In this document: positions 2,596 through 34,700 of the stretch, piece after piece
How positions within the stretch are numbered: position 1 is the stretch's first letter
How the letters are laid out: the number at the start of each line of letters is the position of its first letter
NCBI GenBank assembly: GCA_002482965.1
Contig: DLGZ01000025.1
Coordinates: 16,777-80,776 of the forward strand
Direction: 5' to 3'
DNA length: 64,000 nucleotides
DNA from: Verrucomicrobiaceae bacterium UBA7681
Lineage (GTDB): Bacteria > Verrucomicrobiota > Verrucomicrobiia > Verrucomicrobiales > Verrucomicrobiaceae
Position numbers and translations under genes: made by a program
Notes under the pieces: model-generated
The model's input: the letters and a program-made list of their open reading frames with translations, nothing else
Databases searched by the model: none
What the model was told of the DNA's origin: nothing

Positions 2596-2598
2596 AAA

Positions 2599-2616
2599 GG
2601 AGCCTGTCGTGGCTCC
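2599..2616. terminator. short hairpin in the 48-bp convergent gap (GGAGCC-N6-GGCTCC); possible bidirectional terminator
   Basis: 6-bp perfect stem with a 6-nt loop between convergent stops at 2574 and 2623. No U-tract. Confidence 0.25.
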
Positions 2617-2622
2617 GCAAGA

Positions 2623-4302: not shown

Positions 4303-4662
4303 ATGAAATCCGCTCACTCCCTGGTCATTCTCTCGATTCTTGCCGCTCTTTCCCTCACCTCCTGTGGTCATGACTGGAGCTGGAGTGGTGGCGGCTACAA
4401 TCGCGTGCCCCCGGGTGGCACCTACTACGGCAGCAACTTTAACAGAGCACCGAGCTTTGGTGGGCATGGCGGTGGCTACGGCAATGGCTACAGCGTCTGG
4501 CCACAGCCGACGATCAACTACGGTGAAAACTTCACGTGGGAAGACGAGCCGACCAATGTGGGCAACAGCTGGGACCACGGTGGCTATTCTCTCCAGTCAA
4601 CGAGAACGAATCTAGTTACCCGACAAGAGTCGTACCAAACCGTCCGCACCTCCGGCAAATAG
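4303..4662 (+). CDS. small Gly/Tyr/Asn-rich lipoprotein
   Basis: ATG at 4303. Signal peptide plus lipobox (ALSLTS-C) at residues 15-21. 119 aa, low-complexity G/Y/N-rich mature part. The 3' end overlaps the convergent gene by 51 bp. Confidence 0.6.
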
Positions 4663-5976: not shown

Positions 5977-5978
5977 GA

Positions 5979-10598: not shown

Positions 10599-10603
10599 GG
10601 CGG

Positions 10604-11926: not shown

Positions 11927-12107
11927 CTGGCGGAAGCCGGTGCAGCCGGAGGGGGCGGGGATTTTCATGTGGGGCGGCGAAAGGATTGCGGGGAAACGAG
12001 GATGTGAAGTTACTGAGTGAAAGTGGGTTTCCTTGCGGGACCCCGAGAACTCGGGGGGAGGCCGGACGTGGTCTTTGCATAAGCGGGCGGGATGACCATA
12101 GTGCGGA

Positions 12108-15937: not shown

Positions 15938-16986
15938 AATCCTCCCTCCTTTTGATAGTTGTCCTCGCGCTGGTCTTTGTGGCGAGCAATGGTTTGTACA
16001 CCGTGAGCGAGACGGAGCAGGTGGTGATCACCCAGTTCGGCAAGCCGGTAGGGGAGCCTATCCGTGACGCGGGTCTGCACTGGAAGACGCCTTTTGTGCA
16101 GACCATCAACCGCCTGGACAAACGGGTGCTGGAATGGGACGGGCCTTCGGCCAACATGACGACGAAGGACAAGGTCATCGTGGTGGTGGATGCGTTTGGC
16201 CGCTGGGAGATCAACGACCCGCTGGTGTTTTTCCGTCAGCTCACGGATGAGCGGCGCGCGCTGTCGCGGCTGGATGACATCCTGGCGAGCGAGACGCGCA
16301 TCGTCATCGCGAAGCATGATTTCATCGAAGCGGTGCGGACCACGAAGGACCGAAAAGCGGTGCGTGATGAGAGCAATGTGACCACGACGGGCAGCACGCC
16401 TTCGACTGCGGATACACGTCTGGGTGTGCTGCCGCCGATCACGTATGGTCGAGTCGAGCTTGAGGCTGAGATTCTGAAGAATGCCATCCCGAAGATTGAG
16501 GGGTACGGCATCCGGCTGCTGGATGTGCGCTTCAAACGGATCGACTACGATCCGACGGTGAGCAAGTCGATCCATCAGCGCATGATTTCTGAGCGTGAGC
16601 AGATTGCCAAGCTGCACCGCGCGGAAGGTGAAGGCGAGGCGGCGAAGATCAATGGGGAGCGTGAGCGTGATCTGGCGACGATTGAGTCCGAGGCGTACCG
16701 CAAGGTGCAGGAGATGGAAGGTACGGCGGATGCGAAGGCAACGGAGATTTATGCGAAGGCGTACAACCAGACGCCGGAGGCTGCGGAACTGTTTGATTTC
16801 CTCAAGACGATGGAGACGTACAAGATGCTGATCACTTCTGACACGACGATGATTTTCACGACGGACAGCGAGTTGTTCCGGTATCTGAAGTCGAGCAATC
16901 CGCAGGCGACGAAACCGGTGGCGGGAGCGACAGGGGAGTTCACGCCACTGCACAAGCTACCGACGCTGATGGAAGTGGGGCGGTGA
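15934..16986 (+). CDS. hflC: FtsH protease modulator HflC (SPFH/band-7)
   Basis: ATG at 15934 overlaps the hflK stop (15935-15937). N-terminal TM helix, SPFH domain and coiled-coil region (..RAEGEGEAAKINGERERDLA..). Confidence 0.9.
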   Translation: MKSSLLLIVVLALVFVASNGLYTVSETEQVVITQFGKPVGEPIRDAGLHWKTPFVQTINRLDKRVLEWDGPSANMTTKDKVIVVVDAFGRWEINDPLVFFRQLTDERRALSRLDDILASETRIVIAKHDFIEAVRTTKDRKAVRDESNVTTTGSTPSTADTRLGVLPPITYGRVELEAEILKNAIPKIEGYGIRLLDVRFKRIDYDPTVSKSIHQRMISEREQIAKLHRAEGEGEAAKINGERERDLATIESEAYRKVQEMEGTADAKATEIYAKAYNQTPEAAELFDFLKTMETYKMLITSDTTMIFTTDSELFRYLKSSNPQATKPVAGATGEFTPLHKLPTLMEVGR

Positions 16987-17117
16987 GGAGGGCGGGGTCT
17001 GAACCGGAAACCGGCTGAGGCCGGGACTACAGAACGGCGTTGGGCAGCTTGTGAACGAGGAACCAAGCATCTGAAGTCTGCACCTCTGCGCCTTGGTGGT
17101 GAACCTAACCGTGCTGA

Positions 17118-20100
17118 TCAGGAAACTGTGCGGCGGCGGCGCAGGAAGCTGAAGAGGCCCAGCATGAGAAGGAGGATGCGGGAGGGCTCGGGGACGACAA
17201 CGATGACGCCGTAGGTGGTGAAGGCGCTGGTGTCCCATGAAAGCCCGGGATCCAGCGACACGCTTGAGAGGTCCAAATTCGCCGTGGTAAAGCTGCCGGT
17301 GCCTGCGAGTGAGTCCAGCGTGCCCACTGTGGTCCAGTCGAGGAGTTTGAAGATGTTGCCAGCGTTAAGTGTGGCGCTGTTGTTGTTCACCTTGATCGTG
17401 CCGCCTGCGGTGGTGCCCAGATTGAAGGTGCCGTTGGTCAGCCTGACGCTGTCATAATCTCCGGACTGGTCCCAAATGGTGGTGTAGGCCGTGCCGGTGG
17501 CACCGCCGTGGGTGTTCAAATAGGTGTTGGCGTCGGTTGAGAAATCGAAGGAGGCGTCAACCTGCGAAGTAGAGGTGAGGCCGAGCTGAATCTGGCCACC
17601 ATTCTGGACGTCCACCGCTGTGCCAGCGGCTGTGAAGGTCAGGGTTTGATTGCTGGTGTCCGTGGCCCCCACGCCTGGAGCGAGAACGGCACCGCTGCTG
17701 ATGACGGTAGCGCCGGCGATGCTGCCTGAGCCTGAGAGTGTGCCGTCGATGCTTACCGTAACGATGCCGGAGCCGGCAAGAGCGCCGCTGGCGCCATCTC
17801 CCACCTGCAAGGTGCCTGCGGCCACGGTGGTGGTGCCAGAGTAGGTACTGGTCTGGTTGAGCACGAGGATGTTGGCGCCCAGTTTCTTGAGACCCACGCT
17901 GTTTGCGCCGCTGTTGGTGTCGGCGATGACACCGTCATAGGTGAAACTGCCACCGGTGGCGTTGGTGGTGTCGAGGCCAATGAATGAGCCGTCTGTGAAG
18001 CCGCCGGTGGGGGTGCCTAGCGACTTGATGACGTCCACATCCGATGCGGTGAATTCGCCGGTACCGCCGACGTTGAAGGCGGCAGTGGCACCGCTGCTGA
18101 CGACGATATTGGCGTCTGTCCAGCTTGCGGGGGTGTTGTTATAGAGTGCTGTCTCCACAAGGAACTGCAGGGTGCCGGCGGTGACCGTGGTGGTGCCGGT
18201 GTAAGAGTTCACGCCATCCATGTAAAGGGTGCCGGAGGTGGTCTTGCTGAAGGCAGTGCCGCCATTGAGTTCAGCGAGATTTTTCAAGGTGCCGGACTGA
18301 GCATTGAAGGCGATGGCATTGGTGGAAGCGCCGATGGATCTGCCGGTCATGTCCAGCAGACCGCCATCGAGAGTGATGGAGGCAATGCGGGTTCCTCCGC
18401 CGGTGCCGCTCACGATGTCTCCCTGAACGGTCAGAGTACCGCCGGTGATTCCGATGGAGGCGTTTGCAGTGCCGGTCGTGGCAATGGCCATGGTGACGGC
18501 GGTGGTGGCCAGAGTGACGTCACCCCCAGAGACATTGAGGGCGGTGGTCGTTGAACCGGTGCCGTTGGTGTTGCTGTTGCCCATGATGAGGGCCTGGCCG
18601 CTGCCGGAGCCGATGGTGACGGTGCCAGCTGTGACATTGATGATGGAACTCACCGCTCCGGTGTTGGAGTTGCTGGCGAGAGTGGCGGCCGTGCCCGTGC
18701 CGGAACCGATGGCGACGATGCCGCCGCCGAGGTTGATGACGTTCGTGTTGTTGCCAGAGGATGTCTTCGAACCCATGGTGAGATTGCCGGTGGTCAGGGT
18801 GCCTGTGTCGAAGGCAAAGAGGTTTTCTATCGGGCCGGTTCTGGTGGCCTGAGTGCCAATGGTCACCGCCCCGAAGAGCAGATCCGCCGTATGTCCGGTG
18901 ACATCGAAGGTGTTCCGATTGCCCGCAGGCAGCCCCACTCCAGTGACGCCGTTGATGGAAGCCATATTGAAGGCGGCGGCAGACACGCCGTCGGCAGCGC
19001 GAATGGTGACTGTTCCGTTTGAATTGAAGAAGGTGATGGAACCCAAATCGCGTCCGCCGGTACCGATGTTGACCGCATCAACGTTGATGACGTTGGTGGC
19101 AGTGCCGAGTTGCAGCGCGTTGATCTGGCCGAGGTTACCAGTGTAGGAGCCACCGCCGCCCACGGTCAGCGCGCTGGCCGTAATGGTGGTGTTCTGCGCG
19201 AGGATGAGAGTGCCGTATCCGGTGCTGTTGGTTCCGGAGGTGCTGCCGATCTGAAGAATGCCGCTGGTGGTGTTCAGGGAGACATCCATGGTGGACAGCG
19301 CACTGAAGTCGGCGGTGGAGATGTTGGTGTTCGAGTTGCCGACAAGGAAGGTCACGCCCGTGCCAGTGGTGTTGATGACACTGAGGGCGCCCAAACCTGA
19401 CGCGGTGAAAAGGGTCGTGGAATTAGCCGCCCCACTGCCCAAGGTCACCGTGCCGCCAACTGTGAGGGTCTCCCCGGCACCGATGAGAATCTGATTGGTT
19501 TCTGCCGCTGTGTTCGTCTGCACGAGCAGGTTTCCGGCGAAGGTGGCGCTGGCAGTGGAGAGATCGAGCGTGCCTGCCGTGGAGGTGGAATTGGCAGTGC
19601 CGAAGTTCAACGCCCCCCCGAGGCTCTGGTCTGCGGTGAAGCGCAGGATACCGTCGTTGATGCTGGTAGCACCCGAATACGAACCGGGGCCACTGATGAC
19701 CCAGGTGTTCGTGTCCAACTTGATCAAGGTCAGTACGCCAAGGCCGTATTCATCGAGGCCACCCAGGGTGTTGTCCAGCAGAGGGTCGGAGAGTCCCCTC
19801 AGGGTGAGAGTTTTGTTGCCTGCGGTTTCAAACTGAACTCCGCCGAGCACCAGCGCGCCGGTGCCTGAAGAGTCCAGGGTGAGAGCACCGGTGGTGCCCT
19901 GCATGCCGATGGTGCGATCACTGATGCTGCCGCTGCCGGTGTAGATGAGCGTGGTGGCCACGGTGGAGAGACCCACGTGAATGACGCCGTCCTGCGCAGT
20001 GGCGGAACTGCCCAGCGCGCTGGCACCGCCGCCCACGCTGGTGATGGAGTTGAAGCTGAGAGTGCCAGCCTGAACTTCGACAGGACCAGCGAAAGTGCTC

Positions 20101-23100
20101 AAGCCGGTCAGGGTGAGCGTGTTGGTCTGTGTTTTCAGCAAGCCACCAGCGCCTGCCAGCGCGGTATCGACACTGATATCACCGGTGTTGCCGAAGTAGA
20201 AGCCGGCGCTGGCCGTGATGGAGCCAGAACCCAGAATGACAGGACTGTCGCCAAAGACGGACACCAGTCGGGCGGTGATGTTGTAGCTGACCAAATCCAG
20301 CGTGGCACCGGCCCCGATGTTGAGATTCCCACCCACACCTGTGGCATTGTCGGCATTGATGATCAGCGTGCCGCCGAAAATGTTGGTGGCCCCCGTATAG
20401 GTAGCGGCGGCGTTCAATATCAGGTTTCCCGCCCCAGTTTTGGTCAGGTCACCCACACCGGAGCCAACCGATTGATTGAGCGACAGATTATTGCCGTTGG
20501 TGTCAATGGTGGCACCACCCTGGAGGAAGATGATGCTGCGCAGTGAAATGTCATCCGAGAATCCGGCACCCAGGCGCAGAGTACCACCGGCGAAGACGAG
20601 TGAGCCTGTGGCACCGCCGATGTTGTCGAGAGAGGCGATTTCGAGTACGCCTTCATTGAGGGTGGTCTTCATGGTGCCACCGCCGGCAGTATTGACGCCG
20701 CTGAGGATCAAGGTACCACGACCGGACTTGGTGATGTCCGCCGTGGACGTCAGCGGAGAGTTGATGCTGGCCGTGAGGTTCTCAAGGGTGGCGTATTGAT
20801 AGGTCTGGCTGCTGGCGGTTAATGTGGAGGGCAGACTCATGAGGAAGTGGGTCGCATCCGTCACACTGAGCACGGTGGCACCCGATGCGATGCCCGCTCC
20901 GAAAACCGGCATGCCCGCCAGCAAGCCCGTGGTGCTGGCCACGGTGACGATCGAACTCCCAATCGTGGTGGAACCGGTCGTCAGACTGTTGGAGGAGTTT
21001 GGATTGATCACGCTGAACACGTATTCGTTGGTGCTGCCTACAGTGATACCGTTGTCGAAGCCGCCAAGGGTGGTGGTGTAGGCGATGTTCGTCACCGCAC
21101 CGGTGACGGTGAAGAGCAGCGCACCGCTGGTGACTCCCAGGGTTTGACCCGCGCCGGAACCGGTGACGTTGAGCGCCACAGTCGCGGTGTTGTCAAAGAC
21201 CAGTGCGTTGATTGTCTTGCCGCCAAGTCCGGTGAGGTCGGTGCTCAACGACTCGCGGACATTGTCGGTGGTGCCGGCGAGAGCGTAGGTGTTGTACTCC
21301 GTGGCGAAATCGAGCGGGCGGAAACCAGCGCCGCTGACATAGGTCACGAGAGAGTTGCCCATGTTGGTGGCGGCCAATGCATTGGAGCCGATGTCTTCAC
21401 CGACAGCCCATGGCACAATGCTGATGTTCTTGGTGCCTGCGAGACCGCCGCCACCCACGAGGTTGCTGGAGATAAACGTTGCGTCGCTGGCGGTGACGAT
21501 GCGGAACTGATTGTTACGGGCGTTGGTGCTGCCCAGGTTGGTACCACGAATGTTCAGCGTGGAATTGTTCAGGCGCACGATGTCACTCGCAATGATGTCC
21601 GAGTCATCATTGGACGTGGTGGCTTCCATGCCGACATAGCTGGCACCGGAGGCTGCCGTCACCACACCCACGGTCTCATCGAGAGTTCCATCCTGATCGG
21701 TGCGGATGGAGAGGCCGCGCACAATGGTCTGACCTTGGAGGGTGCCGTCTGCGGAGTCGAGCGTGATGGCCGTGGTGTCGAGAATGCGTGTGCCGGAGCG
21801 GGTGGTGCTGTTGTTGTCGATGAACAGGGCTCCATTCTTGCTCACACGGATGATGGAGGCATTGATCTGACCGATGCCGCTGAGCTGGAGAGTGCCGCTG
21901 GCGACCGTGAAGACGCCGGTAAACCCCGTGCTGATGTTGTTCAGATTGAGATTGCCGGCGCTCAGCTTGACGATGCTGCCGGTGCCGGTGAAGAAACCTG
22001 CATAAGTCGTGCTGGAGACTTCATTGATGGTGAGGGTGTGAGTTCCCACGGCGACGGTGCCGTTGTCTGAATTGGTGGCGCGCTGGCCACCGGAGAGCCG
22101 ACCGATGGTCTCGTCGTCCAAGAGTTCCAAGGTGGTGTCCAGATAGGCATTGAGCGAGACGATGGAATTGTCACCAATGGCATTGCCGCCGGAGACCTGA
22201 AGAGTGCCCTGGAGGATTTCCGTTTCATCGGTGTAAACGTTGTTGCCGGTGAGGAGGAGGGTGCCCGTGCCGGACTTGGTCACTGCATGATTGATGCGGA
22301 TGTCCGAGCTGATGGTGAAAGTCTGGGCGCTTTCCTGAGTGATGATGAGTTCGGTGACGCCCGAAGCGAGGGTGCCGCCCTGAATGCTGGGTGTGCCGCC
22401 GACATTGGAGGTGACGAGGATGCCGCCGCTGGCGATGCTGAGGAGGCCTCCCGAAGCGATGTTCAAATCCGAACCCGCCACGGCATCAAAGCGGAGGCTG
22501 TTGATGCTCAGGCCCTGAAGCGTGCCGCTGAACCCGGTGGTGTCATCGGTGACATGATCACCAACGGCCCAGGTGGTGACGTCGTTTTCAATGGTGGAGA
22601 CAAGTGCAATGATGTTTCCGCCCGAGTTGGTGGCGAACCAGACGCCGGTGCCATCATCCACCGTGGCGAAACCGCTGAGGCCCAACAAGCCCTGGGCGCC
22701 GTTGACCGTGGTGGTGGTAAAACCATGGGTGGCGCTCTGGGTGCCGGTGGGCAGGATGAAGCGGATGGTGCCATCCCGGTTGGTGGAAGTGCGGGTGATC
22801 GCCCCCAGATTGAGAACCATTTCCTGCCCTGCCCCGGGAGTGAGCGTGATGGTGCTGGCGCTGCTGTTGTCGCTGGTAGCGCTGCCGTCCAGAGTAATGC
22901 TGGCCACGGTCTGACTTGTCGCAGCACTGGCGTTGCCGGTGAGAACGAGATTGCCACCGAGAATCTCGAGAGCGGAGGTGGTGCGGAGCTTGGTCGTGTT
23001 GCTGATGGTGTAATCCAGGACCAGAGTGCCTTCATAGAGGATGCTGCTGCCCGTGGAGCCGAGTCCGCTGTTGTCGCCCTTGAGAGTGACGGTGCCGGAG

Positions 23101-26100
23101 CCGAATTTTTCGAGCGCGGTGGAGCCGGTGCTGGCGAGGTTGGCGTTGACGATGCCGTCGTAGAGATTGATGTCGCCATTGGTCACGGTCACCGTGCCAG
23201 TGCCGTCGATCTGGCCCGTCAAGATGGCTGAGCGCTGACCGACATCGAGACGCAGGGTGGTGATATTGAAAGTATTGGTGTTGAGAACACCCGACTCAGG
23301 TCCGCCCGAATCTCCCAGAATGATGAAGTCCAGACCGCCGCTGTTGGCTGCGCCGTTCACATCGTCAGCGTTGAGATTGATGACCGCCCCGGTGCGGGCA
23401 TAGAGGCCGCTGCTGGTTCCCGCAGGGGTGGCGGCGGCGAGTACGCCGGTGGTGTTCAGGTTCAGCACGGTGCCGACACCTGTCACGATGACATCATCGG
23501 CGATGGTGACGGTGTTGTCTCGGAGGGTCCAGATGCCGGAATTCACGAGGAGATCCGCCGAGGCCGCCCCGAGGGGCTGAGCGATGCCGCCGCTGATGAT
23601 GCCTTCTCCGGTGCCAATGAGAGTGAGGACATTGTCGGTCGCCATCGTGATGGCACCGGCATAGGTGATGATGGCGCCCGAGGTGCCGCTGGCTTCCAAA
23701 GTCGGGCTGGCTGATATCGTGATCAACCTGTCGGTGGACTGACTGGTGTCGCCCATGAAACGGAGCGAGGAGGTGCCGAGGATATTGATGGCCGAACCCA
23801 TGCCGAGGCTGCTGGCGGCACCACCGATGTTGGTAACGGTGTTGAATTCGAGAGTTCCCTCCTTGAGCGAAATGTCGCCGCTGAAGGTATTGGCCCCTGT
23901 GAGTGTTACGGTCCGGCTGGTAACACCCCAGGCGCCAAGTTCGTCATTGATGGCAAGGTCGTATCCCATGCCGCCATCGGAGATGACAGCAGAAATGAGC
24001 AACGACCTGACGGACGAACCCTGGTAGGTGAGGCTGGCGTCGTTGCCGAGGACGATGGAGTTGGTGATGTTAATGAGGCTGAAATTGTCCGACGCCTGGC
24101 TGATGCGGAGCGCGTTGTTTGCGTTGGTGGCGCTGCCGATGGTGATGATGCCAGTGAGGTTCACGGTCATGTCGCTCACGGGTGTGCCCGAGGCGTCTGC
24201 ACTGAGCTCAAGAATACCCCCGGAGCCATCCACGGCGATGTTTTGGCCCAAGTTGTGGGTGGTGCCGCCCGCGGTCACAAACTGAATGCGGCCCATGGTG
24301 GCGGTGATGTCTCCCGTGCCGAGACCGGTGACGGTCTGAGTCTGAATGGTGCCGCGGATGAGATTGATGCCCCCGGACCAGCTGCTGTTTTCCGCCTGAA
24401 AGTAGAGCGTGCCGGTGACCTGGTTTCCGCTGGAGAGGGTGGTGATGCTGTCCACGGTGAGGCTGCCAGAACCGCTCACGATGCCACTGAGAACGACATT
24501 GCCTTGAGTTGCGGTGAGCACGGCTGAATTGGACCCGCGCATGTTGATGAAGGAATTTGCGCTGACATTGACCGTGCCGGTGTAGTAATTGTTGCCGGCA
24601 TTGCCGCCAGCAGAAAGAGTGCCGCCGGACAGGGTCAGGTTGTTGGCCACGCCGGTCGCTGCGGAATTGGCGGCCCCATTGTAGTAGAAGGCGCCGCCGC
24701 TGCCGACGGTGATGGTGGCGAGGTTGCCGTTGATCTTGCTGCCCAAGGCGGTGGCATCGAGGATTTCCAAAGTGCCTGCATTGATGTTGAAGTCTGAGGT
24801 GAGCGTGCTGTTGAAGGTCAGATCAGCGGCGTTGGTGAGTGTGACCCTGCCCAAGCCGCTTTTGATGACATCGGCCTCACCGAGGAGGGAGCCAATGGAG
24901 AGTACGGAGCCTGCGTCTGCCACGGTCCAAGTCTGGTCCGAGCCGAGGCGGACGGGAGCGGTGATGTTCACGGTGGCGGGTCCGCCCGTGGTGATGGTGA
25001 TGCCATCGGAGGCGACCTGCGGGGCGATGCTGAGGCGGAAGGAAGGATCCACACCCGAACCGATGGTCACGGAGGCAGGCGTGTTCGCGCCGTTTGTGGC
25101 GGCTTCGAAGGTGAGTGAGTTGATCTTGACGCTTTGTTCCAAGGTGGTGGAGACTGCCGCATTGCTGGCTGCATCCCATTGGAAGATGACATCTGTTCCC
25201 TGACCTGGAGTGGAGAGCGCCACGATGGTGCCCGCTTTGTCCTGAGACCAGTTGTTGACGTTCCCGTTCCAGGTGGTGTCCGTCAAACCGCGCCAGTAGG
25301 AGGTGCCGGTGATGAGGGTGCCGGTGGTGATGGAAATGAGGTTGTCCGTCTGATGGATGGTGATAGAGCTGAAACCACCCGGGGTCAGACCCAGTATCCA
25401 ATCGCTGGCGCCAAGAGGGCCGGTGATCAGACCCCCGTCTGCGGAAGAAATCAGGCTGTAGGTTTGGGATGCATTCAGGCCTGTGTCGCTGAGATTGAGC
25501 GTGATCTGATTTCCCGCGAAGAGATTCAAGGTTCCGCCTGCGAGCAATCCGAGGAGGTCGGTGTTGGCGTTGTCACCCGGCGTGATGCCGTCACCCACAT
25601 TGAATCTGAGAGTGGTCATGGTGCCGCCGGAGGAGCCGAGGGAGAGGAGGGTCAACTGGTTGAGCTGGTTCCCTGCGCCATCGAGAAGGTTGAGGGTGGA
25701 ACCGTTGTCAACGATCACACTGGTGACCGCCAAGGGAGCGGAGATACCGCCGGTGAGAGCGAGCGTGGAGGCGTTGGTGACACTGAGGCCGGTGGTGCCA
25801 TTGAGCGAGGAGCCAACGGTGAAGGAACCGCCGTTCACGTTTGTGGTGCCGGTGTAGGTCAATGAGACGCCGTTGGAGATGGTCGCATCCGCAGAACCCG
25901 TCTTGGTAATGGAGAGGGCGCCGCCGCCGCTGTTCTGAATGGAGTAGGTGCCGACCCCGCCGCCATAGATCACTGCGGAGTCGTTGGCACCGACGGTCAG
26001 GGAGGCGGCGGTGGAGGAGGTGTTGTCGATGGCTGCAGTGCCGTCGGTGTTTGCGGTGAGACCATTGATGGTCTGGGAGGTGCCGTTGAGATCGAGCGTG

Positions 26101-29100
26101 GCGGTGTCGGCATTGGCCAGTTCGGGAGTCAGCAGCACGCTGCCAAAGCCAGCGCCAGAGGCAATGGCATTGTCAGCGCCCATGCGCAGGGTGCCGCGGT
26201 CGATATCCGTGCTGGCGTTGTTTAAGTTGTAGTTGGAGCTGCTGCCATTGAGCTGAAGGACGCCGTCACCGGTCTTGGTGAGTACGATGCCGAAGGAGGT
26301 GGTGGTGGTGAAATCGCCGTCGATGATGGTCAAGCCCGACCCGTCCACGGTGAAAACGCGGTTGGCGGTGAGGAGGTTTGCGGTGGCTCCGGCAAAGGTC
26401 AGGGACTTGCCGCTGACGACGTTGTTGTTCAGGCCGTTGTTGTTCGCGGAGGTCAGCAACTGGAAAACACTGGTGGTGGTGAGGCTGTAGTCACCTGCGA
26501 AGGCGGTGGTGGTGTTGTTGACGAGGCGGACAACGTTATCGATGGTGCGGTCTGCACCGTAGGAGAACAGGGTGCCGTTGCTCCAGTCCAGATTGCCGGT
26601 GCCGAAGGCGTGGTCGTCACCGATGCCGAGCGAGCCTGCGGTGAAGGTGGTGGTGCCGGAGTAGTCGTTTGAGCCGTTGGTGAGGATCCACATGGCGGAG
26701 CTGTCCACCTGAATGCCCAGGGTGCCTCCGTTGTCAGAGAGCTGGCTGGTGATCATGTTGCCGGCGGCATTGACGCCACGAAGGAGGAGCACCTTGTTTC
26801 CAGCCACGAGGTCATTGGCCACATTGGTGAGGATCAAAGCGCCAACGCCGTCGGCGTGGATTTGATTGCTGCCGGTGGTGGTGTTGAGGCGGATGTAGCG
26901 GTCGCTGGTTTCACCGAGGCCGATGTACTCCAAGATGCCGACCGTGGTGCCGCCGTTACCGAGGAGAATGGCACCTGCATTGGTGTTGCCGAGAGTGGCG
27001 TCACCGACGCTGGTGCTGCCGCCCGAGGCGCTGTTGCCAAGGGTGACAACGGCGAGCGTGCCCTGCCGCACCAAGGTCTGCCCGGTGTAGGTGTTATCAC
27101 CGCGCAGATTCAGGATGCCCGCGCCTTCCTTGGCCAGATTGCCTGCGCCGGAGATGACGCCACTGATGGTGGCGAAGTCCGCGCCGATGGTGGTGAAGTC
27201 ACCCACATTGACCTGACGGTAGCCGTCGCCAGAAAAGTTAGTGGAGACACCGGTAGAATCCAGTACACCCGTGCCAGAGGTGAGGGTGAACTGTGTGGCG
27301 CTGATGATGTTGGCAATCGTCGCGCCGACGGGGATGGCGGCGTTGCCGGTAATCGTCTGGCCGGCGGTCAGTCCGGCCGTGGTGCCAGAAGCAACAGTCA
27401 CTGTGGCGCTTCCGGCTGCAGTCGTCAGAGACAGGCCTGAGATGGTGGTGCCCTTGGTGATCTCAAAGCCGTTGAGCATGGTCACGTCTGACTTGGCGAG
27501 GCCGCCCACCGTTTGCGAGATGGCATTGAAGAGGAGGGCACCGCCATCGAGAAAGCCTGCTGTGGCGCCCCAAATCGGATTGCTGCCGAGATCCACAGTC
27601 AGCGAGGCACCGCCCGCAGAAAAACCGCCAGCGGCTGCACCCGAAAACTGCACCTGATTGGCACCGGTGCCGAGGGTACGCGTGAAGGCGCCTGTGGTGG
27701 CCAGGGAACCCCCATTCAACACGAGATTGGAGGCTGTCGGCAGACTGATGCCGTCATCGGCATAGAGGAGGCCGCCGCGGATTTCGGTGACGCCTGAATA
27801 GCCGTTGGTGGCTTCCAAATACCAAACACCTGCATCCGCCTTGTAAACCGAGGTCACTGCTGCGCCGTTGTCATTGATGATGGGAAAGAAGCGGTTGTCC
27901 CCTGTGGAGGTGCCGCCCAGAACGAGGCCCTGGGCCTTGCCGGCGGCGGCACTGCCGAATGCCAAAGCGCCGGTGTTGGTGAAACTCAGCGTGGCTCCGT
28001 TCACCCCATTGGCCTGGATGCGTGCGCCGCCATTGGTGCTGCCGTTGAAGGTGAAGAGGCGGTCGGTGAAATCATTGGTGGTGCCGGCGAAACTGAGACC
28101 GCCGTAGGATTGAATGGTGCTGGTGCCGGTGAAGACGAGATTGCCCGCGTCACTGGTGGCCGCGCCGAAACCGCTTTCGAAACCGCCGTTAGCCACATTG
28201 TTCACGGTCACGATGCCAGTCGAGGCAATGGTGGTGACGCCGGTGTAGTTGCTCAGGCCCAACCAGCTTTGCGCACCGGTGCCCGTTTTGAGAATATTGA
28301 TGACGCCATTGGTTTCCGTGAATGTACCGAAAGATGTTCCGGTGCCGTTGCTTCCGCCGACGTTGAAGGTGACTGCAATGGAACTGGAATTGGTCAGGGT
28401 GCCAGCGTTGTTCCAGGAGTTGGTGCTGCCGCTGGGTGTGACACCGTTCAAGTCAATCGTGGCGCCCTGACGCACCGAGACACTGACATTGCTTGCCGCG
28501 AGACGCCCGGTGCCGCTGAGTTGCACGGTGCCTTCATTGATGTTGACCGTGCCAGTCTGCGCATTCACTCCAGCGAGCACCAGCGTGCCTTCGCCGACCT
28601 TGGTGAAGCCACCGGTGGTGGTGCTGGTGATCGGCGCATTGAGAGTCAGAGTGTTCGCGCCGCCATCCACATTGATGACCAGTGCTCCGCTGCCGCCGGT
28701 GCTGACACCTGTGCCTGAGATGGAGCCAGAGCCGCCGGTCAGGATGATGCCGCCGGAAGCATTCGTGGCAGCAGCGGTGCGGATGGTAAGAAGGCCGGTC
28801 ATGGTGAGCGCCTGGGCACCGTTGATTCTCAAGGAGTCGATGGTGACTGCTGCATTGCTGAAACTGCCGGTGATTTCATTGCTCATACCAGCGGTGAGCG
28901 CCGTTGCCGAGGTCGCAAAATCCGCATCGCTGGCGTAATCGGGCGCACGCAAGGCAAGCCCTGCACCGGGGACAAAAGCGAAGTCAGAACCGTTGTAGAA
29001 AAGGCCAGCATTGGCGATGTTGTTTGTGATGCTGGTGGTGGTGAACGAAACGGTGTCACTGCTGGTGGGAGCCACGATGTTCACGGTGCCGCCGGCCCCG

Positions 29101-31385
29101 ACAGTGCCAAGAGAGTCAAAGACCAGCGAGGCGGTGCCACCGCTGCCGGGAGTGAGCTTGATGGTGCCGGAGCCGGTGGTGGGGGTGAGCACACCAAGGG
29201 TCTCGACGTTGTTGATGCTGGCCTGGCCGACAAACTCCAAGGTGCCACCGGCGTATTGGTTGACCTGATTGAAGACAATCGTGGAGGCGTCGGACACGAC
29301 CGTGGAAGCAGCGGCGTTGGCCTTGAGTTTCAAGATGCCATTGGTGATGGTGGTGGTGCCGGTGTACACGTTGGCACCTGCGAGAACCCAGGTGCCTGCG
29401 TCCACCTTGGTGAGATTGACGAGACCGCCTGCAGCGTTGTTGGGAATGACGCCATTGATGGTGTTCTGAGCGGTGTTGATACCGCCAAGAGTCAAAGTCT
29501 TCGCGTTGGAGGCGCTGCCGCCCGTGGCGGAAAAGTCCGAATTGAGAATCAGGCCGGGGCTGGTGCCGGTCTGATTGGCGAGGATGGTCGCACCGCCGGT
29601 GGTGCCAGCAAGATTGATGACCTTGCTGGTCGTCAAATTGGCTTGGAGGAGATTGTTGCCGACGACGCTCAGAATCGCTGCGGTACTGCCACTGCCGATG
29701 TTGATGGTGCCGGTGTTGTTGTTGATGGCACGCCAGTCGTTGACGGCAAGCGTGCCTCCGCTCACGCTCACGGTGCCATCGAGTGTGGAGGCTGTGCCGG
29801 TGATGGTGAGAGTTCCCGAGCCGGACTTGGTCAAGTTGTGCGCAAAACCGGCGGAGGCTCCATTGACGTTGCCATTGATCAGCGTGTTTCCATTGCCGCT
29901 GATGGTCATCGTTCTGTCGCCCGTGTTATCCGTATTGCTCCAGAAATTTCCGGTGAAGCTGAGCAGCGCGCCACCTTGGAGATTGTTCGTCATCGTCGTA
30001 TTCGAGTTGCCACCGTTGACCGGTGCGGTCGTGAAACTCATGCCGTAGCCATTGCGGCTGTTGAACGTCAGGACGATATTGTCCTCATACGACAAGTTGC
30101 CGAAAGCCACCGTCTGGTCCTTGACCGAACTGTTCGGTGTGTGATCCACATAAATGGTGCTGGCGGCACGAAAATAGACATTGGCATTCGTACCGTTCGA
30201 GACTTTCACATCCGGAGAATCCATGAGCACAGCGAGGACACCGCCATTCAAGTCCAGCACGGCGCTGGTGGTCCCGGCGGTGCGGGTGCCGAGGACACCG
30301 GGCGAGTCGATGCGTACGACGCTCTGACCGCTGGCGGCGCTGCCGCTCACGCGGATGGTGCCGGAAAAGCCGGACGAATCAGTGGGATTGAGGAAGAGGG
30401 TGCCACCGCCGCTGGCTTCTAGCGTTCCGGTGCCGGCGAGAACGCCGGTGATGTTATAAAAACTGGCGCCGGCCTGATTGGTGCCACCCAATGAACTGAT
30501 GGTCGTGGCGGCCGTGCCGAGCACGTTCAAAGTGCCGGTGAAACTGAGGGTGCCATCTGCAGCGATGATGCGGGTGCTGAGGTTGGTGGTGCCATAGGGA
30601 GCGCCCATGGTGACGGTGCCAGAGAGGGTGTTCACGCCGGTGCTGATCACCGCGCCGCTGCGGTCGGAGATGGGCCCCTGCCCCTGAAGCAAAAGATCGC
30701 GCGTGATCGTGATGCCGCCGCCAGTGCCGTCCAAAACCAACGAACCGCCGCCAAAGCCGCGCAAACTGGTGGAGCCGATCACCGGATTGAAGCCCGTGAC
30801 AACAATGGCCGACGAGTCGCTGCCCAGCGCGCTTTGATTGGTGATTATCAGCGCGCCATTGCTGATGGTGGTGGTGCCAGTGTAGGCGTTGGCAATGTTA
30901 CCAAGGCGAATCGTGCCGCCACCCAGCATGGTGAGACCTTCCGCCCCAAGAATCTGGCTGTTGATCGTGGCACTCACCCCCAAGGCTGCGCTCAAGGTGG
31001 GCGTGATTCCTGCGAAGGTGAGATCTCCGCCGGTGAGTGTGAACCCGGTGCGGAGGAAGGACAGTTGATTGGCGGTGATGCCGGAACTGAGCGTCACCGT
31101 GCTGAGTGTCGGCAGGAGAGTGATGGGTGCGCTGAAGATGGCGTTGTCTGAGCTGGTATTGGGCCACAGGCCGAGCGCAGAACCATCCCACCAGTTCGAG
31201 GTTGTCAGTTCCCACTCGCCCGTGCCGCCGAGGCCGGTGCCATTCACGTTGTTGCCAGCAGTACTGGCGTCGGAGTCCCAGTAAAAAGCAGCTGCTTTCG
31301 CAGACTCCAACTGACACAACAGCAGCGTGAAAACAAAAAGTCCGCACCATGCGGGGACGCTGAAAAGCTTACGAGTGGCCTTCAT
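17118..31385 (-). CDS. giant (4755 aa) secreted autotransporter-associated beta-strand repeat protein with PEP-CTERM sorting signal
   Basis: Uninterrupted 14.3-kb ORF. Start taken at ATG 31385 (MKATRKLFSVPAWCGLFVFTLLLCQLESAKA signal peptide), then an AAFYWDSD..W..W head box. Dozens of G.G.L.L.G.N.Y(T/S)G.T.I..G.L units. C-terminus VPEPSRILLLMLGLFSFLRRRRTVS. No beta-barrel domain. Confidence 0.95.
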   Translation of the reverse strand: MKATRKLFSVPAWCGLFVFTLLLCQLESAKAAAFYWDSDASTAGNNVNGTGLGGTGEWELTTSNWWDGSALGLWPNTSSDNAIFSAPITLLPTLSTVTLSSGITANQLSFLRTGFTLTGGDLTFAGITPTLSAALGVSATINSQILGAEGLTMLGGGTIRLGNIANAYTGTTTISNGALIITNQSALGSDSSAIVVTGFNPVIGSTSLRGFGGGSLVLDGTGGGITITRDLLLQGQGPISDRSGAVISTGVNTLSGTVTMGAPYGTTNLSTRIIAADGTLSFTGTLNVLGTAATTISSLGGTNQAGASFYNITGVLAGTGTLEASGGGTLFLNPTDSSGFSGTIRVSGSAASGQSVVRIDSPGVLGTRTAGTTSAVLDLNGGVLAVLMDSPDVKVSNGTNANVYFRAASTIYVDHTPNSSVKDQTVAFGNLSYEDNIVLTFNSRNGYGMSFTTAPVNGGNSNTTMTNNLQGGALLSFTGNFWSNTDNTGDRTMTISGNGNTLINGNVNGASAGFAHNLTKSGSGTLTITGTASTLDGTVSVSGGTLAVNDWRAINNNTGTINIGSGSTAAILSVVGNNLLQANLTTSKVINLAGTTGGATILANQTGTSPGLILNSDFSATGGSASNAKTLTLGGINTAQNTINGVIPNNAAGGLVNLTKVDAGTWVLAGANVYTGTTTITNGILKLKANAAASTVVSDASTIVFNQVNQYAGGTLEFVGQASINNVETLGVLTPTTGSGTIKLTPGSGGTASLVFDSLGTVGAGGTVNIVAPTSSDTVSFTTTSITNNIANAGLFYNGSDFAFVPGAGLALRAPDYASDADFATSATALTAGMSNEITGSFSNAAVTIDSLRINGAQALTMTGLLTIRTAAATNASGGIILTGGSGSISGTGVSTGGSGALVINVDGGANTLTLNAPITSTTTGGFTKVGEGTLVLAGVNAQTGTVNINEGTVQLSGTGRLAASNVSVSVRQGATIDLNGVTPSGSTNSWNNAGTLTNSSSIAVTFNVGGSNGTGTSFGTFTETNGVINILKTGTGAQSWLGLSNYTGVTTIASTGIVTVNNVANGGFESGFGAATSDAGNLVFTGTSTIQSYGGLSFAGTTNDFTDRLFTFNGSTNGGARIQANGVNGATLSFTNTGALAFGSAAAGKAQGLVLGGTSTGDNRFFPIINDNGAAVTSVYKADAGVWYLEATNGYSGVTEIRGGLLYADDGISLPTASNLVLNGGSLATTGAFTRTLGTGANQVQFSGAAAGGFSAGGASLTVDLGSNPIWGATAGFLDGGALLFNAISQTVGGLAKSDVTMLNGFEITKGTTISGLSLTTAAGSATVTVASGTTAGLTAGQTITGNAAIPVGATIANIISATQFTLTSGTGVLDSTGVSTNFSGDGYRQVNVGDFTTIGADFATISGVISGAGNLAKEGAGILNLRGDNTYTGQTLVRQGTLAVVTLGNSASGGSTSVGDATLGNTNAGAILLGNGGTTVGILEYIGLGETSDRYIRLNTTTGSNQIHADGVGALILTNVANDLVAGNKVLLLRGVNAAGNMITSQLSDNGGTLGIQVDSSAMWILTNGSNDYSGTTTFTAGSLGIGDDHAFGTGNLDWSNGTLFSYGADRTIDNVVRLVNNTTTAFAGDYSLTTTSVFQLLTSANNNGLNNNVVSGKSLTFAGATANLLTANRVFTVDGSGLTIIDGDFTTTTSFGIVLTKTGDGVLQLNGSSSNYNLNNASTDIDRGTLRMGADNAIASGAGFGSVLLTPELANADTATLDLNGTSQTINGLTANTDGTAAIDNTSSTAASLTVGANDSAVIYGGGVGTYSIQNSGGGALSITKTGSADATISNGVSLTYTGTTNVNGGSFTVGSSLNGTTGLSVTNASTLALTGGISAPLAVTSVIVDNGSTLNLLDGAGNQLNQLTLLSLGSSGGTMTTLRFNVGDGITPGDNANTDLLGLLAGGTLNLFAGNQITLNLSDTGLNASQTYSLISSADGGLITGPLGASDWILGLTPGGFSSITIHQTDNLISITTGTLITGTSYWRGLTDTTWNGNVNNWSQDKAGTIVALSTPGQGTDVIFQWDAASNAAVSTTLEQSVKINSLTFEAATNGANTPASVTIGSGVDPSFRLSIAPQVASDGITITTGGPATVNITAPVRLGSDQTWTVADAGSVLSIGSLLGEADVIKSGLGRVTLTNAADLTFNSTLTSDFNINAGTLEILDATALGSKINGNLATITVGSGGAFYYNGAANSAATGVANNLTLSGGTLSAGGNAGNNYYTGTVNVSANSFINMRGSNSAVLTATQGNVVLSGIVSGSGSLTVDSITTLSSGNQVTGTLYFQAENSSWSGGINLIRGTIQTQTVTGLGTGDITATMGRIQFVTAGGTTHNLGQNIAVDGSGGILELSADASGTPVSDMTVNLTGIITIGSATNANNALRISQASDNFSLINITNSIVLGNDASLTYQGSSVRSLLISAVISDGGMGYDLAINDELGAWGVTSRTVTLTGANTFSGDISLKEGTLEFNTVTNIGGAASSLGMGSAINILGTSSLRFMGDTSQSTDRLITISASPTLEASGTSGAIITYAGAITMATDNVLTLIGTGEGIISGGIAQPLGAASADLLVNSGIWTLRDNTVTIADDVIVTGVGTVLNLNTTGVLAAATPAGTSSGLYARTGAVINLNADDVNGAANSGGLDFIILGDSGGPESGVLNTNTFNITTLRLDVGQRSAILTGQIDGTGTVTVTNGDINLYDGIVNANLASTGSTALEKFGSGTVTLKGDNSGLGSTGSSILYEGTLVLDYTISNTTKLRTTSALEILGGNLVLTGNASAATSQTVASITLDGSATSDNSSASTITLTPGAGQEMVLNLGAITRTSTNRDGTIRFILPTGTQSATHGFTTTTVNGAQGLLGLSGFATVDDGTGVWFATNSGGNIIALVSTIENDVTTWAVGDHVTDDTTGFSGTLQGLSINSLRFDAVAGSDLNIASGGLLSIASGGILVTSNVGGTPSIQGGTLASGVTELIITQESAQTFTISSDIRINHAVTKSGTGTLLLTGNNVYTDETEILQGTLQVSGGNAIGDNSIVSLNAYLDTTLELLDDETIGRLSGGQRATNSDNGTVAVGTHTLTINEVSSTTYAGFFTGTGSIVKLSAGNLNLNNISTGFTGVFTVASGTLQLSGIGQINASIIRVSKNGALFIDNNSTTRSGTRILDTTAITLDSADGTLQGQTIVRGLSIRTDQDGTLDETVGVVTAASGASYVGMEATTSNDDSDIIASDIVRLNNSTLNIRGTNLGSTNARNNQFRIVTASDATFISSNLVGGGGLAGTKNISIVPWAVGEDIGSNALAATNMGNSLVTYVSGAGFRPLDFATEYNTYALAGTTDNVRESLSTDLTGLGGKTINALVFDNTATVALNVTGSGAGQTLGVTSGALLFTVTGAVTNIAYTTTLGGFDNGITVGSTNEYVFSVINPNSSNSLTTGSTTIGSSIVTVASTTGLLAGMPVFGAGIASGATVLSVTDATHFLMSLPSTLTASSQTYQYATLENLTASINSPLTSTADITKSGRGTLILSGVNTAGGGTMKTTLNEGVLEIASLDNIGGATGSLVFAGGTLRLGAGFSDDISLRSIIFLQGGATIDTNGNNLSLNQSVGSGVGDLTKTGAGNLILNAAATYTGATNIFGGTLIINADNATGVGGNLNIGAGATLDLVSYNITARLVSVFGDSPVILGSGSITASAGFYFGNTGDISVDTALAGAGGLLKTQTNTLTLTGLSTFAGPVEVQAGTLSFNSITSVGGGASALGSSATAQDGVIHVGLSTVATTLIYTGSGSISDRTIGMQGTTGALTLDSSGTGALVLGGVQFETAGNKTLTLRGLSDPLLDNTLGGLDEYGLGVLTLIKLDTNTWVISGPGSYSGATSINDGILRFTADQSLGGALNFGTANSTSTAGTLDLSTASATFAGNLLVQTNTAAETNQILIGAGETLTVGGTVTLGSGAANSTTLFTASGLGALSVINTTGTGVTFLVGNSNTNISTADFSALSTMDVSLNTTSGILQIGSTSGTNSTGYGTLILAQNTTITASALTVGGGGSYTGNLGQINALQLGTATNVINVDAVNIGTGGRDLGSITFFNSNGTVTIRAADGVSAAAFNMASINGVTGVGLPAGNRNTFDVTGHTADLLFGAVTIGTQATRTGPIENLFAFDTGTLTTGNLTMGSKTSSGNNTNVINLGGGIVAIGSGTGTAATLASNSNTGAVSSIINVTAGTVTIGSGSGQALIMGNSNTNGTGSTTTALNVSGGDVTLATTAVTMAIATTGTANASIGITGGTLTVQGDIVSGTGGGTRIASITLDGGLLDMTGRSIGASTNAIAFNAQSGTLKNLAELNGGTAFSKTTSGTLYMDGVNSYTGTTTVTAGTLQFLVETALYNNTPASWTDANIVVSSGATAAFNVGGTGEFTASDVDVIKSLGTPTGGFTDGSFIGLDTTNATGGSFTYDGVIADTNSGANSVGLKKLGANILVLNQTSTYSGTTTVAAGTLQVGDGASGALAGSGIVTVSIDGTLSGSGSIAGATVISSGAVLAPGVGATDTSNQTLTFTAAGTAVDVQNGGQIQLGLTSTSQVDASFDFSTDANTYLNTHGGATGTAYTTIWDQSGDYDSVRLTNGTFNLGTTAGGTIKVNNNSATLNAGNIFKLLDWTTVGTLDSLAGTGSFTTANLDLSSVSLDPGLSWDTSAFTTYGVIVVVPEPSRILLLMLGLFSFLRRRRTVS
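17121..17195 (-). other. PEP-CTERM sorting signal of the 4755-aa protein
   Basis: GTC CCC GAG CCC TCC (VPEPS) read on the minus strand at 17181-17195, followed by the hydrophobic LLLMLGLFSFL and RRRR. Confidence 0.9.
18270..19430 (-). repeat. C-terminal module shared with the 7614-aa paralogue (copy 1; boundaries approximate)
   Basis: Collinear protein matches: ADFSALS/ADFSSLS, NIGTGGRDLGSITF/NIGTGTRDFGSVTF, IRAADGVSAAAFNM/VRAADGVSRVAFNM, NTFDVTGHTADLLFGAVTIGTQ/NTFDVTGHNADLLFGAVAIGTQ, DGGLLDMTG/DGGTLDMTG, GTLKNLAELNGG/GTLKNLGELNGG. Confidence 0.8.
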
Positions 31386-31784: not shown

Positions 31785-34700
31785 TCAGCGAACTGACCGG
31801 CGGCGGCGAACCATCAGTCCGAAAAGCCCCAGCATCAGGAAGAGCAAACGAGAGGGCTCCGGAACGACGACGATGATGCCATTGCTGGCAAAGAGATCGG
31901 AATTGAAAGACAGGCCGTCGCCAAGCACAATGCCGCCGTAGTCGAAGGTGGTTGATACAGGCATGGAGCCAGTGGCAGTCCAGTCGATGAGTTTGAAAAC
32001 ATCTCCATAAGCCGGAATGTAACCGTAAAGGAAAACAGAGTCTATTTTGAGGGTGCCGTCGATGACGGGAACTGCAGTTCCATTCACCATGATGTTGTCG
32101 TGCAGGGTGGTTCCGACGACATAATTGCTCCATGCGGAGGGCACACTGCCCACCAGCCCGGTGAGATTGCCATTGCTGCCCATCTGTGCCTGCACTGTCG
32201 AGGCGTCATTGGTGGTGGCACCACCGAGCTGCATCAGCAGAGTGCCGCCTGCACTGACGGTGAAATTACCACCGACGGTGAGCTGGCCCTCTGCCGCAAT
32301 GCCTGGAGCAATCGTGCTGCCAGCATGCACATTCAGGTCTCCACCCAACACGCCGGTGCCGCCCAGAATGCCATTGTTGACCTCCGTAGATCCGGTGTTG
32401 GTATTGACCGCCGTAAACAACAGGGTGCCGGCACCTTCCTTGGTGAGGGTCCCTTCGCCGGTGACGACACTGCTGACAGTCGCCGTGGTGCTGGCGGCTG
32501 TTTCAATGGTGCCACCTGAGGCTCCAACGGTGATGCCACGATTGCTGTTTTGAATGGCGAGGGTCGCGGTGGTCAACAGCGTTCCGCCATTCAGTGTGAG
32601 CTGGTCTGCGGTGGCTGCGCCTGGATTTGCACCGAGGTTTGATTCACTTGAAATGGAGAGCTTGCCCGCGCTGATGACGGTCTTGCCGGTGTAGGTGTTC
32701 GTGCCCGCAAGAACCAGCGTGCCGCCCGTAGTCTTGGTGAGGGTGCCGCCACCATTAAGCTCGCCGAGATTTTTCAAAGTGCCTGCGGCGGCCACAAAGG
32801 TGACGTTTTGTGCAGCGGAACCGATGTTGCTGCCGGTCATGTCGAGAGTTCCGCCATCGAGGTTCACTGTGGCAGAGGAGGTGCCAGCCCCGAGGGCTCG
32901 GACGATGTTGCCGTTTACCGTGGTGGTGCCGCCGGTCAGATTGAGGCTGGCAGTGGCTGTCGTGTTGGTAGCGGCGCTGGCCATTGTGATCGCGGTGCCA
33001 GCAGTCGCTCCAATGGAAACCGTACCGCCTGTGACATTGATGGTGGCAACAGCCTGGTTGGTTGCGGTGGCAGCCTGTCCCATCTGCAGAATGCCGCTGC
33101 CAATGGTCACCGTGCCGCCACCCAGATTGAGGGTGCTGCTGACCAGAGGGACGCCAGCCAGCGGCGTGCCCGTTTTGACGGACATCGTGAGGCTGGTCAT
33201 GTCGAGAGTGCCCGTGTCAAAGGAGAAGACGTTGGTCAGGGTGTCTCCACGAGTGGACTGCGTGCCGATGGCAACCGCACCGAACAGCAGGTCTGCATTG
33301 TGGCCTGTGACGTCGAAGGTGTTCTGCACACCCGTGGCGGTGGCCACACCCGTCCCGCCGCCGATGGCGCCCATGTTGAACGCCACACGGCTGACGCCGT
33401 CTGCGGCCCGCACGATGATGGTGCCGGAACCTGAATTGAAGGTGACGGATCCGAAGTCGCGCGTGCCGGTGCCGATGTTGAACACATCTGCATTGATGGC
33501 GTTGGTGCCAGAGCCGAGCTTGAGCTGATTGACCTGTCCCACGGAGCCTCCGTACTGACCACCGTCACCGACGGCAAAGGTCTTGGCTGTGATGGTGTTG
33601 TCGGTGGCCAATGTCAGCACCGAGTAGGCATTGGCGGTGTTGGCCGTGGAGTTGTTGCTGACCCTGAATGTGCCAGTGCTGGCATTCAAGAGGATGCTCA
33701 AGCTGCTCAAGCTGCTGAAATCAGCCGTCGCCAGATTGCCCTGACCGCTGGTTGTACCAACGTAGCCACCCACTGTGAAGAACCCGTTGGCAGTGGTATT
33801 GTTCACGGTCACGGTGCCACTGCCGCTGGTCGTGAAATTGGTGGTGGTGAGTGTGGCATTGCTGGAGCCAATGGTGACGTTGCCATTGATCGTCAGTGTC
33901 CGGCCGGAAGCTGTGAGAAGCTGGTTGGCCGTGACATTGTCGCTGGAGACTGAGAAATTGCCCACCGTCTGATTGAAGCCGGAGATATCCAGAGTGGCCG
34001 CAGCACCACCCGTAGCCAGGGTACCCAGCACAAACGCATTCGCGACCGGCAGCGTGTTGGTCGCTCCAATGACGAGAGTGCCTGCACCCGCCGTGGTGGT
34101 GCCGGTGTAGGTGCTGACGCCAGAGGCCGCACTGATGGTGGTGGTATTGGTGTTCGTGATCGTCAGGTTATTGGCGGTGGTGCCATTGCCGTTGGCGATG
34201 GCTCCGGTGATGGCGGTGGCTCCGGTGCCGGCAATCGTCAGCGTGCGTGCATTGGCGGTTTCCGGATTGATGTCGACGCTGGTGAAGGTCAGAGTTTTGC
34301 CAGCACCGATGTTGTTGGTGAGTGTTCTGGAGGCACCCGTCGAACCAGTGAGTTTGCCGTTGAAGGTCAGGTTCTCAGTGCCTGAGACCGTCACGGCGGT
34401 GAGCGTGATGGCATTGGCGATGCTGCGCGAAGCATTGAGCGCCTGAACGGTGCCTGCGGTGAAGGTGAGGAGGCCGCTGGCCAGGCCGCCGTTCGAGTTG
34501 CTGTTGAACTGGAGCATGCCGGTGGTCAGCGTGGTAGCTCCGGCGGAGCTGTTGCTGCCGGAAAACACGAGCGTGCCGGCGGCCGCATTCATTGTGGTGG
34601 TGCCGGTGTAAGTGTTGGCACCGCCAAGGGTGGTGATTCCCGTGTTGGTGATGGTGAGAGTACCTGCAAGACCAGAACCGTTGAAGTCGGCAATGTTGCC

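Follow-up and report, generated by a model that had tools for sequence, protein, structure and literature searches.

The window analysed here is a stretch of 64,000 nucleotides on contig C80 (G000:C80) of the genome of Verrucomicrobiaceae bacterium UBA7681 (7.0 Mb, 86 contigs), and its centre is occupied by two giant genes for beta-helical proteins with a predicted N-terminal signal peptide and a PEP-CTERM tail, the tag of the exosortase system, at the C-terminus. The two genes, giant 1 and giant 2, are co-oriented on the minus strand with a 342-bp spacer between them, and their features are as follows.

17118..31385, minus strand: giant 1 gene, PATR beta-helix repeats and PEP-CTERM tail; open reading frame (ORF) open to 31442, 4774 codons
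17121..17195, minus strand: PEP-CTERM domain of giant 1, VPEPSR + 12-residue helix + RRRR + TVS; TIGR02595 27.5 bits
17196..17900, minus strand: terminal beta-helix module of giant 1, last PATR rung and autochaperone-like cap, with GNIFKLLDW and the WDTSAF..G.I.VV lead-in to PEP
31293..31385, minus strand: predicted Sec signal peptide of giant 1, MKATRK + hydrophobic core + SAKA/AA, read by eye
31785..54629, minus strand: giant 2 gene, 7614 codons (7614 amino acids), PATR beta-helix repeats and PEP-CTERM tail
31788..31865, minus strand: PEP-CTERM domain of giant 2, VPEPSR + 13-residue helix + RRRR + SVR; TIGR02595 22.1 bits
31866..32567, minus strand: terminal beta-helix/cap module of giant 2, with the GDVFKLIDW motif (row 2 of alignment A1, described below)
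54540..54629, minus strand: predicted Sec signal peptide of giant 2, MSYLRAFRRS + hydrophobic core + PLQA/AT, read by eye

The likely start of giant 1 is M20 at 31385, which gives a protein of 4755 amino acids (aa), and homologues of 4766-4784 aa with 82-89% identity start at MKA... as well. The signal peptides of the giants were called from a basic n-region, a hydrophobic core and an AxA-type site; that of giant 1 is kept in homologues and is followed by a conserved YWD head, and the N-terminus of giant 2 recurs in the homologues P0026, P0027 and P0030. The putative counterparts that share the signal peptide of giant 2 are 5273-5340 aa long, as against 7614 aa in giant 2. Over the full length of both proteins, PATR and PEP-CTERM were the sole Pfam families, and PATR (PF12951) scored 126 bits over 13 stretches in giant 1, and 125 bits over 12 stretches plus 98 bits over 10 stretches in giant 2. 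The autotransporter barrel PF03797 was not found at E <= 0.01 across either full-length giant, in agreement with the initial annotation, which had stated that both lack the C-terminal barrel of type V secretion. No promoter or terminator turned up on the minus strand in scans of both gene ends and of the 342-bp spacer. Positions 16900-20099 of the window are matched, with 12 differences, by a contig that another study obtained from a soil metagenome, in which a GCG inserted in frame at 17129 gives one extra Arg in the RRRR cluster of giant 1 and a further 9 nt are inserted in frame at 18499.

The tripartite PEP-CTERM architecture, i.e., Pro-Glu-Pro, hydrophobic helix and basic cluster, is present in both giants. 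Giant 1 ends in ...VVVPEPSR-ILLLMLGLFSFL-RRRR-TVS* and giant 2 in ...VVVPEPSR-LLFLMLGLFGLMV-RRRR-SVR*. The tripartite ends had been placed beforehand at 17121-17195 and 31788-31865, and these limits are exact, being the 25 and 26 codons from the Val of VPEP to the last residue. The genome-wide search with TIGR02595 (PEP_CTERM of NCBIfam, curated cut-off of 16 bits) gave 45 matches over the cut-off in the genome, both giant tails included, in which the match spans residues 176-197 (giant 1) and 175-197 (giant 2) of the last 200. Because none of the 14 control genomes was matched by TIGR02595 at E <= 0.001, the matches on the giant tails are beyond chance.

The region in front of the tag is itself conserved. 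Alignment A1 comprises the last 260 aa of 22 paralogues which are otherwise about 30-40% identical, and its consensus reads ...D-x-L...G-x-L-x-L...G-D-V-F-N-L-I-D-W...L-D-L-P...W-D-x-S-x-F...G-I-I-V-V-V-P-E-P-S-R...R-R-R-R, with W189, G231, V236, P-E-P, R241, R255 and R257 invariant. The AlphaFold2 model on A1 (predicted local distance difference test 81, predicted template modelling score 0.82) consists of the rungs of a beta-helix with a cap, followed by one helix (239-258) that starts at the PEP motif (237-239), and no barrel appears in this model of the last 260 aa. In the structural comparison with VIA-align, almost all matches of the last ~240 aa were C-terminal ends of type Va passengers, namely Ssp (462-642, Z 15.3, root-mean-square deviation 2.8, 169 aligned residues, 25% identity), Ag43 (353-562, Z 13.2), IcsA (544-740, Z 13.2), EspC (807-1001, Z 11.6), pertactin (381-572, Z 11.4) and IgA1 protease (778-989, Z 11.2). 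The IcsA autochaperone fragment (3ML3) was matched over 138 of 156 residues with Z 9.8, and pectate lyases, as generic beta-helices, scored Z 5-8. One high-ranking match was not an autotransporter, the beta-helix domain 7JVI from a gut metagenome (Z 14.6). The matched region of Ssp holds the PATR motif and autochaperone-like last rungs (PMC9977779).

The hidden Markov model (HMM) of A1 was also compared with the barrel-bearing PATR proteins of the genome, and in each of them only the last match reaches HMM position about 175-183; this match covers the G-D-x-[FW]-x-L-x-D motif and lies 116-158 aa upstream of the barrel. Since the same module precedes the barrel in the true autotransporters of the genome, the tag appears to replace the linker and barrel. 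Judged by sequence and model, the giants are predicted to be complete autotransporter-type passengers, in which linker and barrel are replaced by about 55 residues and the PEP-CTERM domain. They resemble type Va autotransporters (Ssp 8E7F, IcsA 5KE1/3ML3, Ag43, pertactin) in the predicted signal peptide, in PF12951 PATR and in the last about 240 aa, which superpose on passenger C-terminal ends, but they differ in that the linker helix and the 12-stranded barrel are missing and a transmembrane helix with an Arg cluster stands there.

Proteins of this kind are frequent in the genome and in its relatives. Among all open frames, the motif scan picked out 26 PEP-CTERM ORFs that are 1000 aa or longer, which sum to 87,389 aa or 3.7% of the genome; all 26 carry P-E-P-x-R (Arg two residues after PEP) and all contain PATR, and in the shorter PEP-CTERM ORFs from the scan the residue at the Arg position is variable. 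Besides the two giants, the PEP-CTERM open frames of the genome include ones of 11,546, 10,487, 7,875, 7,323, 4,023 and 3,355 aa, and the longest in the genus are 14,657, 14,376 and 14,338 aa, so the initial annotation overstated the case in calling cargoes of 4.7 and 7.6 thousand amino acids (kaa) unusually large. With the last 400 aa of giant 1 as query, 72 proteins of 2.6-8.4 kaa were retrieved, and sixteen proteins (2731-6288 aa) are 68-89% identical over these 400 aa and have the same signal peptides and tails. A PEP-CTERM end was recognized by motif in 59 of 73 giants (the 72 matches and giant 2), a few more were seen by eye, and a handful end in an autotransporter barrel. The homologues in Prosthecobacter and other Verrucomicrobiota bear the NCBI name 'autotransporter-associated beta strand repeat-containing protein', and the host is placed in Prosthecobacter (Verrucomicrobiales) because the named homologues of the giant 1 tail belong to this genus. 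Nothing essential differs between the annotated Prosthecobacter giants and those of the window, only the repeat number and length vary. Giant PATR/PEP-CTERM proteins are thus a normal and already annotated pattern in the genus, and nothing specific was found in the literature on "giant genes" with PEP-CTERM, nor on Prosthecobacter with autotransporter.

Three PF09721 exosortases are present in the genome, one each on contigs C48, C20 and C35. A genome with no exosortase homologue had been set beforehand as the finding that would speak against a PEP-CTERM system, and the genome-wide search instead gave these three, with Cys, Arg and His conserved. Cys205, Arg250 and His278 (numbering of type 1, the exosortase of C48) are invariant in 32 exosortases from the order, and Cys/Arg/His is the proposed catalytic centre of exosortases (PMC1569441). 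All three score over the cut-off of TIGR04178 (61, 66 and 40 bits; cut-off 23 bits). Type 1 is a generic exosortase of 324 aa (TIGR02602 118.7 bits, cut-off 105.55 bits), followed by a separate EpsI-like gene of 258 aa. Its neighbours on C48 encode GT9 and GT4, methyltransferases of the FkbM type and others, a flippase of the Wzx type, SIS and PfkB, so that the enzyme belongs to a polysaccharide locus, in agreement with the original EpsH paradigm (PMC1569441). Type 1 is split from EpsI here and in the closest kin (324-351 aa), and four other congeners have it as a fusion with an EpsI-like C-terminus (L012, L018, L025, L027; 569-606 aa). Type 2, on C20, is a stand-alone exosortase-EpsI fusion of 620 aa (TIGR02602 109.9 bits) outside any polysaccharide locus; it is nearest to XrtD and XrtW, yet far under their cut-offs. 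Neither generic exosortase reached a named subtype (XrtA, TIGR03109, 109/118 versus 208 bits; XrtD 112/145 versus 400 bits). The third enzyme is XrtZ (NF050190, 605 bits), encoded directly downstream of an Npun_F0296-family protein with a PGAP-CTERM end (45 bits), and the two form a dedicated sorting pair at the following locus.

G000:C35:9252-12584: XrtZ/PGAP-CTERM locus, ORFs 367-2052 (minus strand) and 1997-3010 (minus strand), with the NF050190 and PGAP-CTERM matches

No exosortase (PF09721) is encoded on the window's contig C80, and the flanks of the giants are not a polysaccharide cluster, so the initial annotation was right that the window has neither an exosortase nor an exopolysaccharide locus. 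It had taken this distance as an anomaly, which does not hold: the PEP-CTERM system is many-to-one, and scattered targets with few exosortases are the norm (PMC1569441, PMC3237569), and here one exosortase is in fact found in a polysaccharide locus on C48. Its interpretation stands in part, i.e., the PEP-CTERM tag is genuine by its TIGR02595 scores; the supposed oddness falls, with the exosortases encoded elsewhere and similar giants common in the genus. PEP-CTERM proteins and exosortases are both found in 19 of 21 genomes (20 relatives and this one) and both missing from the same two, a co-distribution that is a pattern and not a test because the kin are non-independent and the genomes are drafts.

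The system as a whole agrees with what has been described. The founding description of PEP-CTERM and EpsH came from Verrucomicrobium spinosum, which has 65 PEP-CTERM proteins and two EpsH but lacks PrsK/R/T (PMC1569441), and the host studied here belongs to the order of this founding organism. The giants have the tripartite tag and a predicted N-terminal signal peptide, the genome has dozens of scattered paralogous targets and few exosortases, one of them in a polysaccharide locus, and EpsI is fused or adjacent to the exosortase. The differences are that the generic exosortases are under the cut-off of every named subtype, that the giants have a uniform P-E-P-x-R variant with a W-D-x-S-x-F...G-x-I-x-V-V lead-in, and that the giant cargo is 10-50 times larger than the PEP-CTERM proteins studied experimentally.

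We consider it likely that the products of both genes are adhesin-like surface fibres, beta-helical and exported by Sec, i.e., type Va-like passengers with a PEP-CTERM tag in place of the barrel, the adhesin function being part of this inferred reading. The signal peptide would carry the giant across the inner membrane, where the C-terminal helix and RRRR would hold it so that PEP faces the periplasm; a Cys/Arg/His exosortase whose gene lies elsewhere would then cut at PEP and hand the giant on for surface display. The tethering, the cleavage at PEP, the transfer and the surface display are proposed here by analogy with the published processing model (PMC1569441) and with the genetics in Nostoc, where exoproteome changes depend on the exosortase (PMC12188702).

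Several observations weigh against this reading. Pfam PF07589 gave 19.8 and 20.3 bits on the two tails, marginally under its gathering score of 20.7 (0.4-0.9 short). The Pfam autochaperone and pertactin families match neither the giant tails nor the genome's own autotransporters, so the autochaperone likeness is structural only. The look for transcripts gave no usable RNA evidence: parts of the gene occur in two wastewater runs labelled RNA-Seq, of which one is probably DNA and the RNA label of the other is a guess. To our knowledge, no exosortase substrate this large has been experimentally studied, nor has any Verrucomicrobial exosortase. The pairing of tail subclass and exosortase discussed below is based on four genomes and has exceptions, since 5 of 20 tails in G018 are non-R. 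Even in model systems, the cleavage and the outer-membrane route are unsettled (PMC12188702).

A hydrophobic helix followed by RRRR is a stop-transfer anchor in itself, and the tail could accordingly be a permanent anchor that is never cut, with the fibres remaining tethered to the cytoplasmic membrane. A plain anchor needs neither V-P-E-P nor the Arg two residues on, yet both are invariant in the 22 paralogues of A1 in spite of their low overall identity, and PEP-CTERM and exosortase co-occur perfectly in the 21 genomes. In Ssp, about 180 aa form about 7 turns over about 40 Angstrom (PMC9977779), and at this geometry the length of a 4.7-7.6 kaa beta-helix would be ~100-160 nm, far beyond the capacity of the periplasm. 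Because the motif invariance exceeds what an anchor needs and the inferred length is this large, we regard a permanent inner-membrane anchor as highly improbable. An export across the outer membrane by machinery unrelated to the tag, either a Verru_Chthon pseudopilin/type II-like cassette or a short barrel acting in trans, is a less remote alternative that we still think unlikely; PEP-CTERM cleavage would then merely free the protein from the inner membrane. The genome has three Verru_Chthon cassettes, all near other PEP-CTERM genes (at 64 bp, at 440 bp and adjoining a 1417-aa one), as well as 11 autotransporter barrels, several with short passengers, and the terminal module of the giants is autochaperone-like, all of which would fit such a route. 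But neither a Verru_Chthon cassette nor a barrel gene lies beside the two giants of the window, and the action of type Va barrels in trans is not an established mechanism. This kind of export is moreover compatible with the proposed exosortase-processed surface fibres and not exclusive of them.

The more probable cognate enzyme of the giants is the exosortase-EpsI fusion of C20, paired with the P-E-P-x-R subclass, an assignment to which we give about an even chance of being right. Of 12 genomes in the genus, all yielded the type 2 fusion and 10 yielded type 1, and the four genomes that bear on the pairing are as follows.

G010 and G011 (93-96% complete): type 2 only; 14/14 recovered tails P-E-P-x-R, mostly on proteins of 1.1-4.3 kaa
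G017: main exosortase type-1-like, plus one divergent match; 20/20 sampled tails of VPEPSS type (non-R), on proteins of 190-410 aa
G018 (83% complete): only a type-2-like enzyme found; 15/20 sampled tails P-E-P-x-R

These data suggest that the fusion serves the P-E-P-x-R class, including the giants. The cognate enzyme may instead be the 324-aa exosortase of C48 with its separate EpsI, with the C20 fusion uninvolved, which we hold to be possible though rather doubtful. Its place among GT9, GT4, FkbM, Wzx-type flippase, SIS and PfkB genes, like the EpsH paradigm (PMC1569441), speaks for it, and so do the non-R tails of G018, which occur with only a type-2-like enzyme found and imply that the subclasses are not strictly partitioned. 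Type 1 orthologues were, however, not found in the 93-96% complete genomes G010 and G011, where giant P-E-P-x-R proteins are nevertheless present, and in G017, with its type-1-like main exosortase, the sampled tails are all without the Arg and belong to small proteins.

The barrel-type relatives show what else may stand at this end of the passenger. Of the 11 PF03797 barrels elsewhere in the genome, the longest belongs to an open frame of 2,786 aa. A size rule, by which barrel paralogues stay under 2.8 kaa and giants need PEP-CTERM, is true for this genome and was rejected on the barrel frames of relatives: congeners have barrel open frames of 5,979 and 4,806 aa, and G020, of the same order (2.4 Mb), has 15 barrels (e.g. 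G020:C1:62701-63459) with open frames up to 21,153, 9,234 and 8,252 aa. Neither exosortase nor PEP-CTERM was found in G020, which is thus the mirror image of the window's genome. PEP-CTERM and barrel ends seem able to take each other's place on passengers of one kind.

The finding of the giants overturns nothing, and the homology of the passenger ends together with the possible pairing of tails and exosortases is a modest added value. The product name "autotransporter-associated" invites a wrong call of the secretion system, the likely correct reading for these genes being Sec plus exosortase. As the same passenger and cap terminate, depending on the paralogue or genome, in a type V barrel or in PEP-CTERM, they offer a natural experiment, and Prosthecobacter is useful for asking by which route the cargo crosses the outer membrane and how several exosortases are matched to tail variants. 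A broader and tentative proposal is that the Prosthecobacter exosortase system serves as barrel-independent export and anchoring for full passengers up to ~14.6 kaa together with their autochaperone-like cap, with P-E-P-x-R tails paired to the fusion and the PEP-x-S/G tails of small proteins to the exosortase of the polysaccharide locus. If such a barrel-independent route were true, the cap at the C-terminus would mean that these passengers fold from C to N outside the outer membrane with no type V translocator involved.

Some further loci of the genome were noted. A true autotransporter of 968 aa at G000:C78:14617-17520 (minus strand) combines Ice_binding (DUF3494, 200 bits), one PATR and a PF03797 barrel. 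For the 1987-aa frame at G000:C83:25450-31411, the profile search of the genome gave PF03797 with 128.8 bits at the end, and hmmscan of the translation gave only PATR. The three Verru_Chthon cassettes (TIGR02600 951-1089 bits, TIGR02596) are located at G000:C78:56648-61762 (plus strand), G000:C64:27166-31764 (minus strand) and G000:C19:95419-102439 (minus strand); the 10,487-aa and 7,323-aa PEP-CTERM giants are each followed by one of them, which begins 64 and 440 bp downstream, respectively, the third adjoins the 1,417-aa PEP-CTERM PATR gene, and none adjoins the two giants of the window.

The flanks of the giants in the window encode an ABC-F ATPase, 3-keto-disaccharide hydrolase-like proteins, a PSCyt1/WD40 protein, PSCyt2/PSD1 and DUF1501 proteins, an SDR, an epimerase, two SPFH proteins, two sulfatases, a lactonase, a transaldolase and HisF, which is a gene set of the PVC (Planctomycetes, Verrucomicrobia, Chlamydiae) type and not a polysaccharide locus. 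Upstream of the giants and with no evident link to them, positions 4612-12265 (minus strand) hold a PVC-typical run composed of PSCyt1 + WD40, PSCyt2 + PSD1, a PPC-domain protein and DUF1501.

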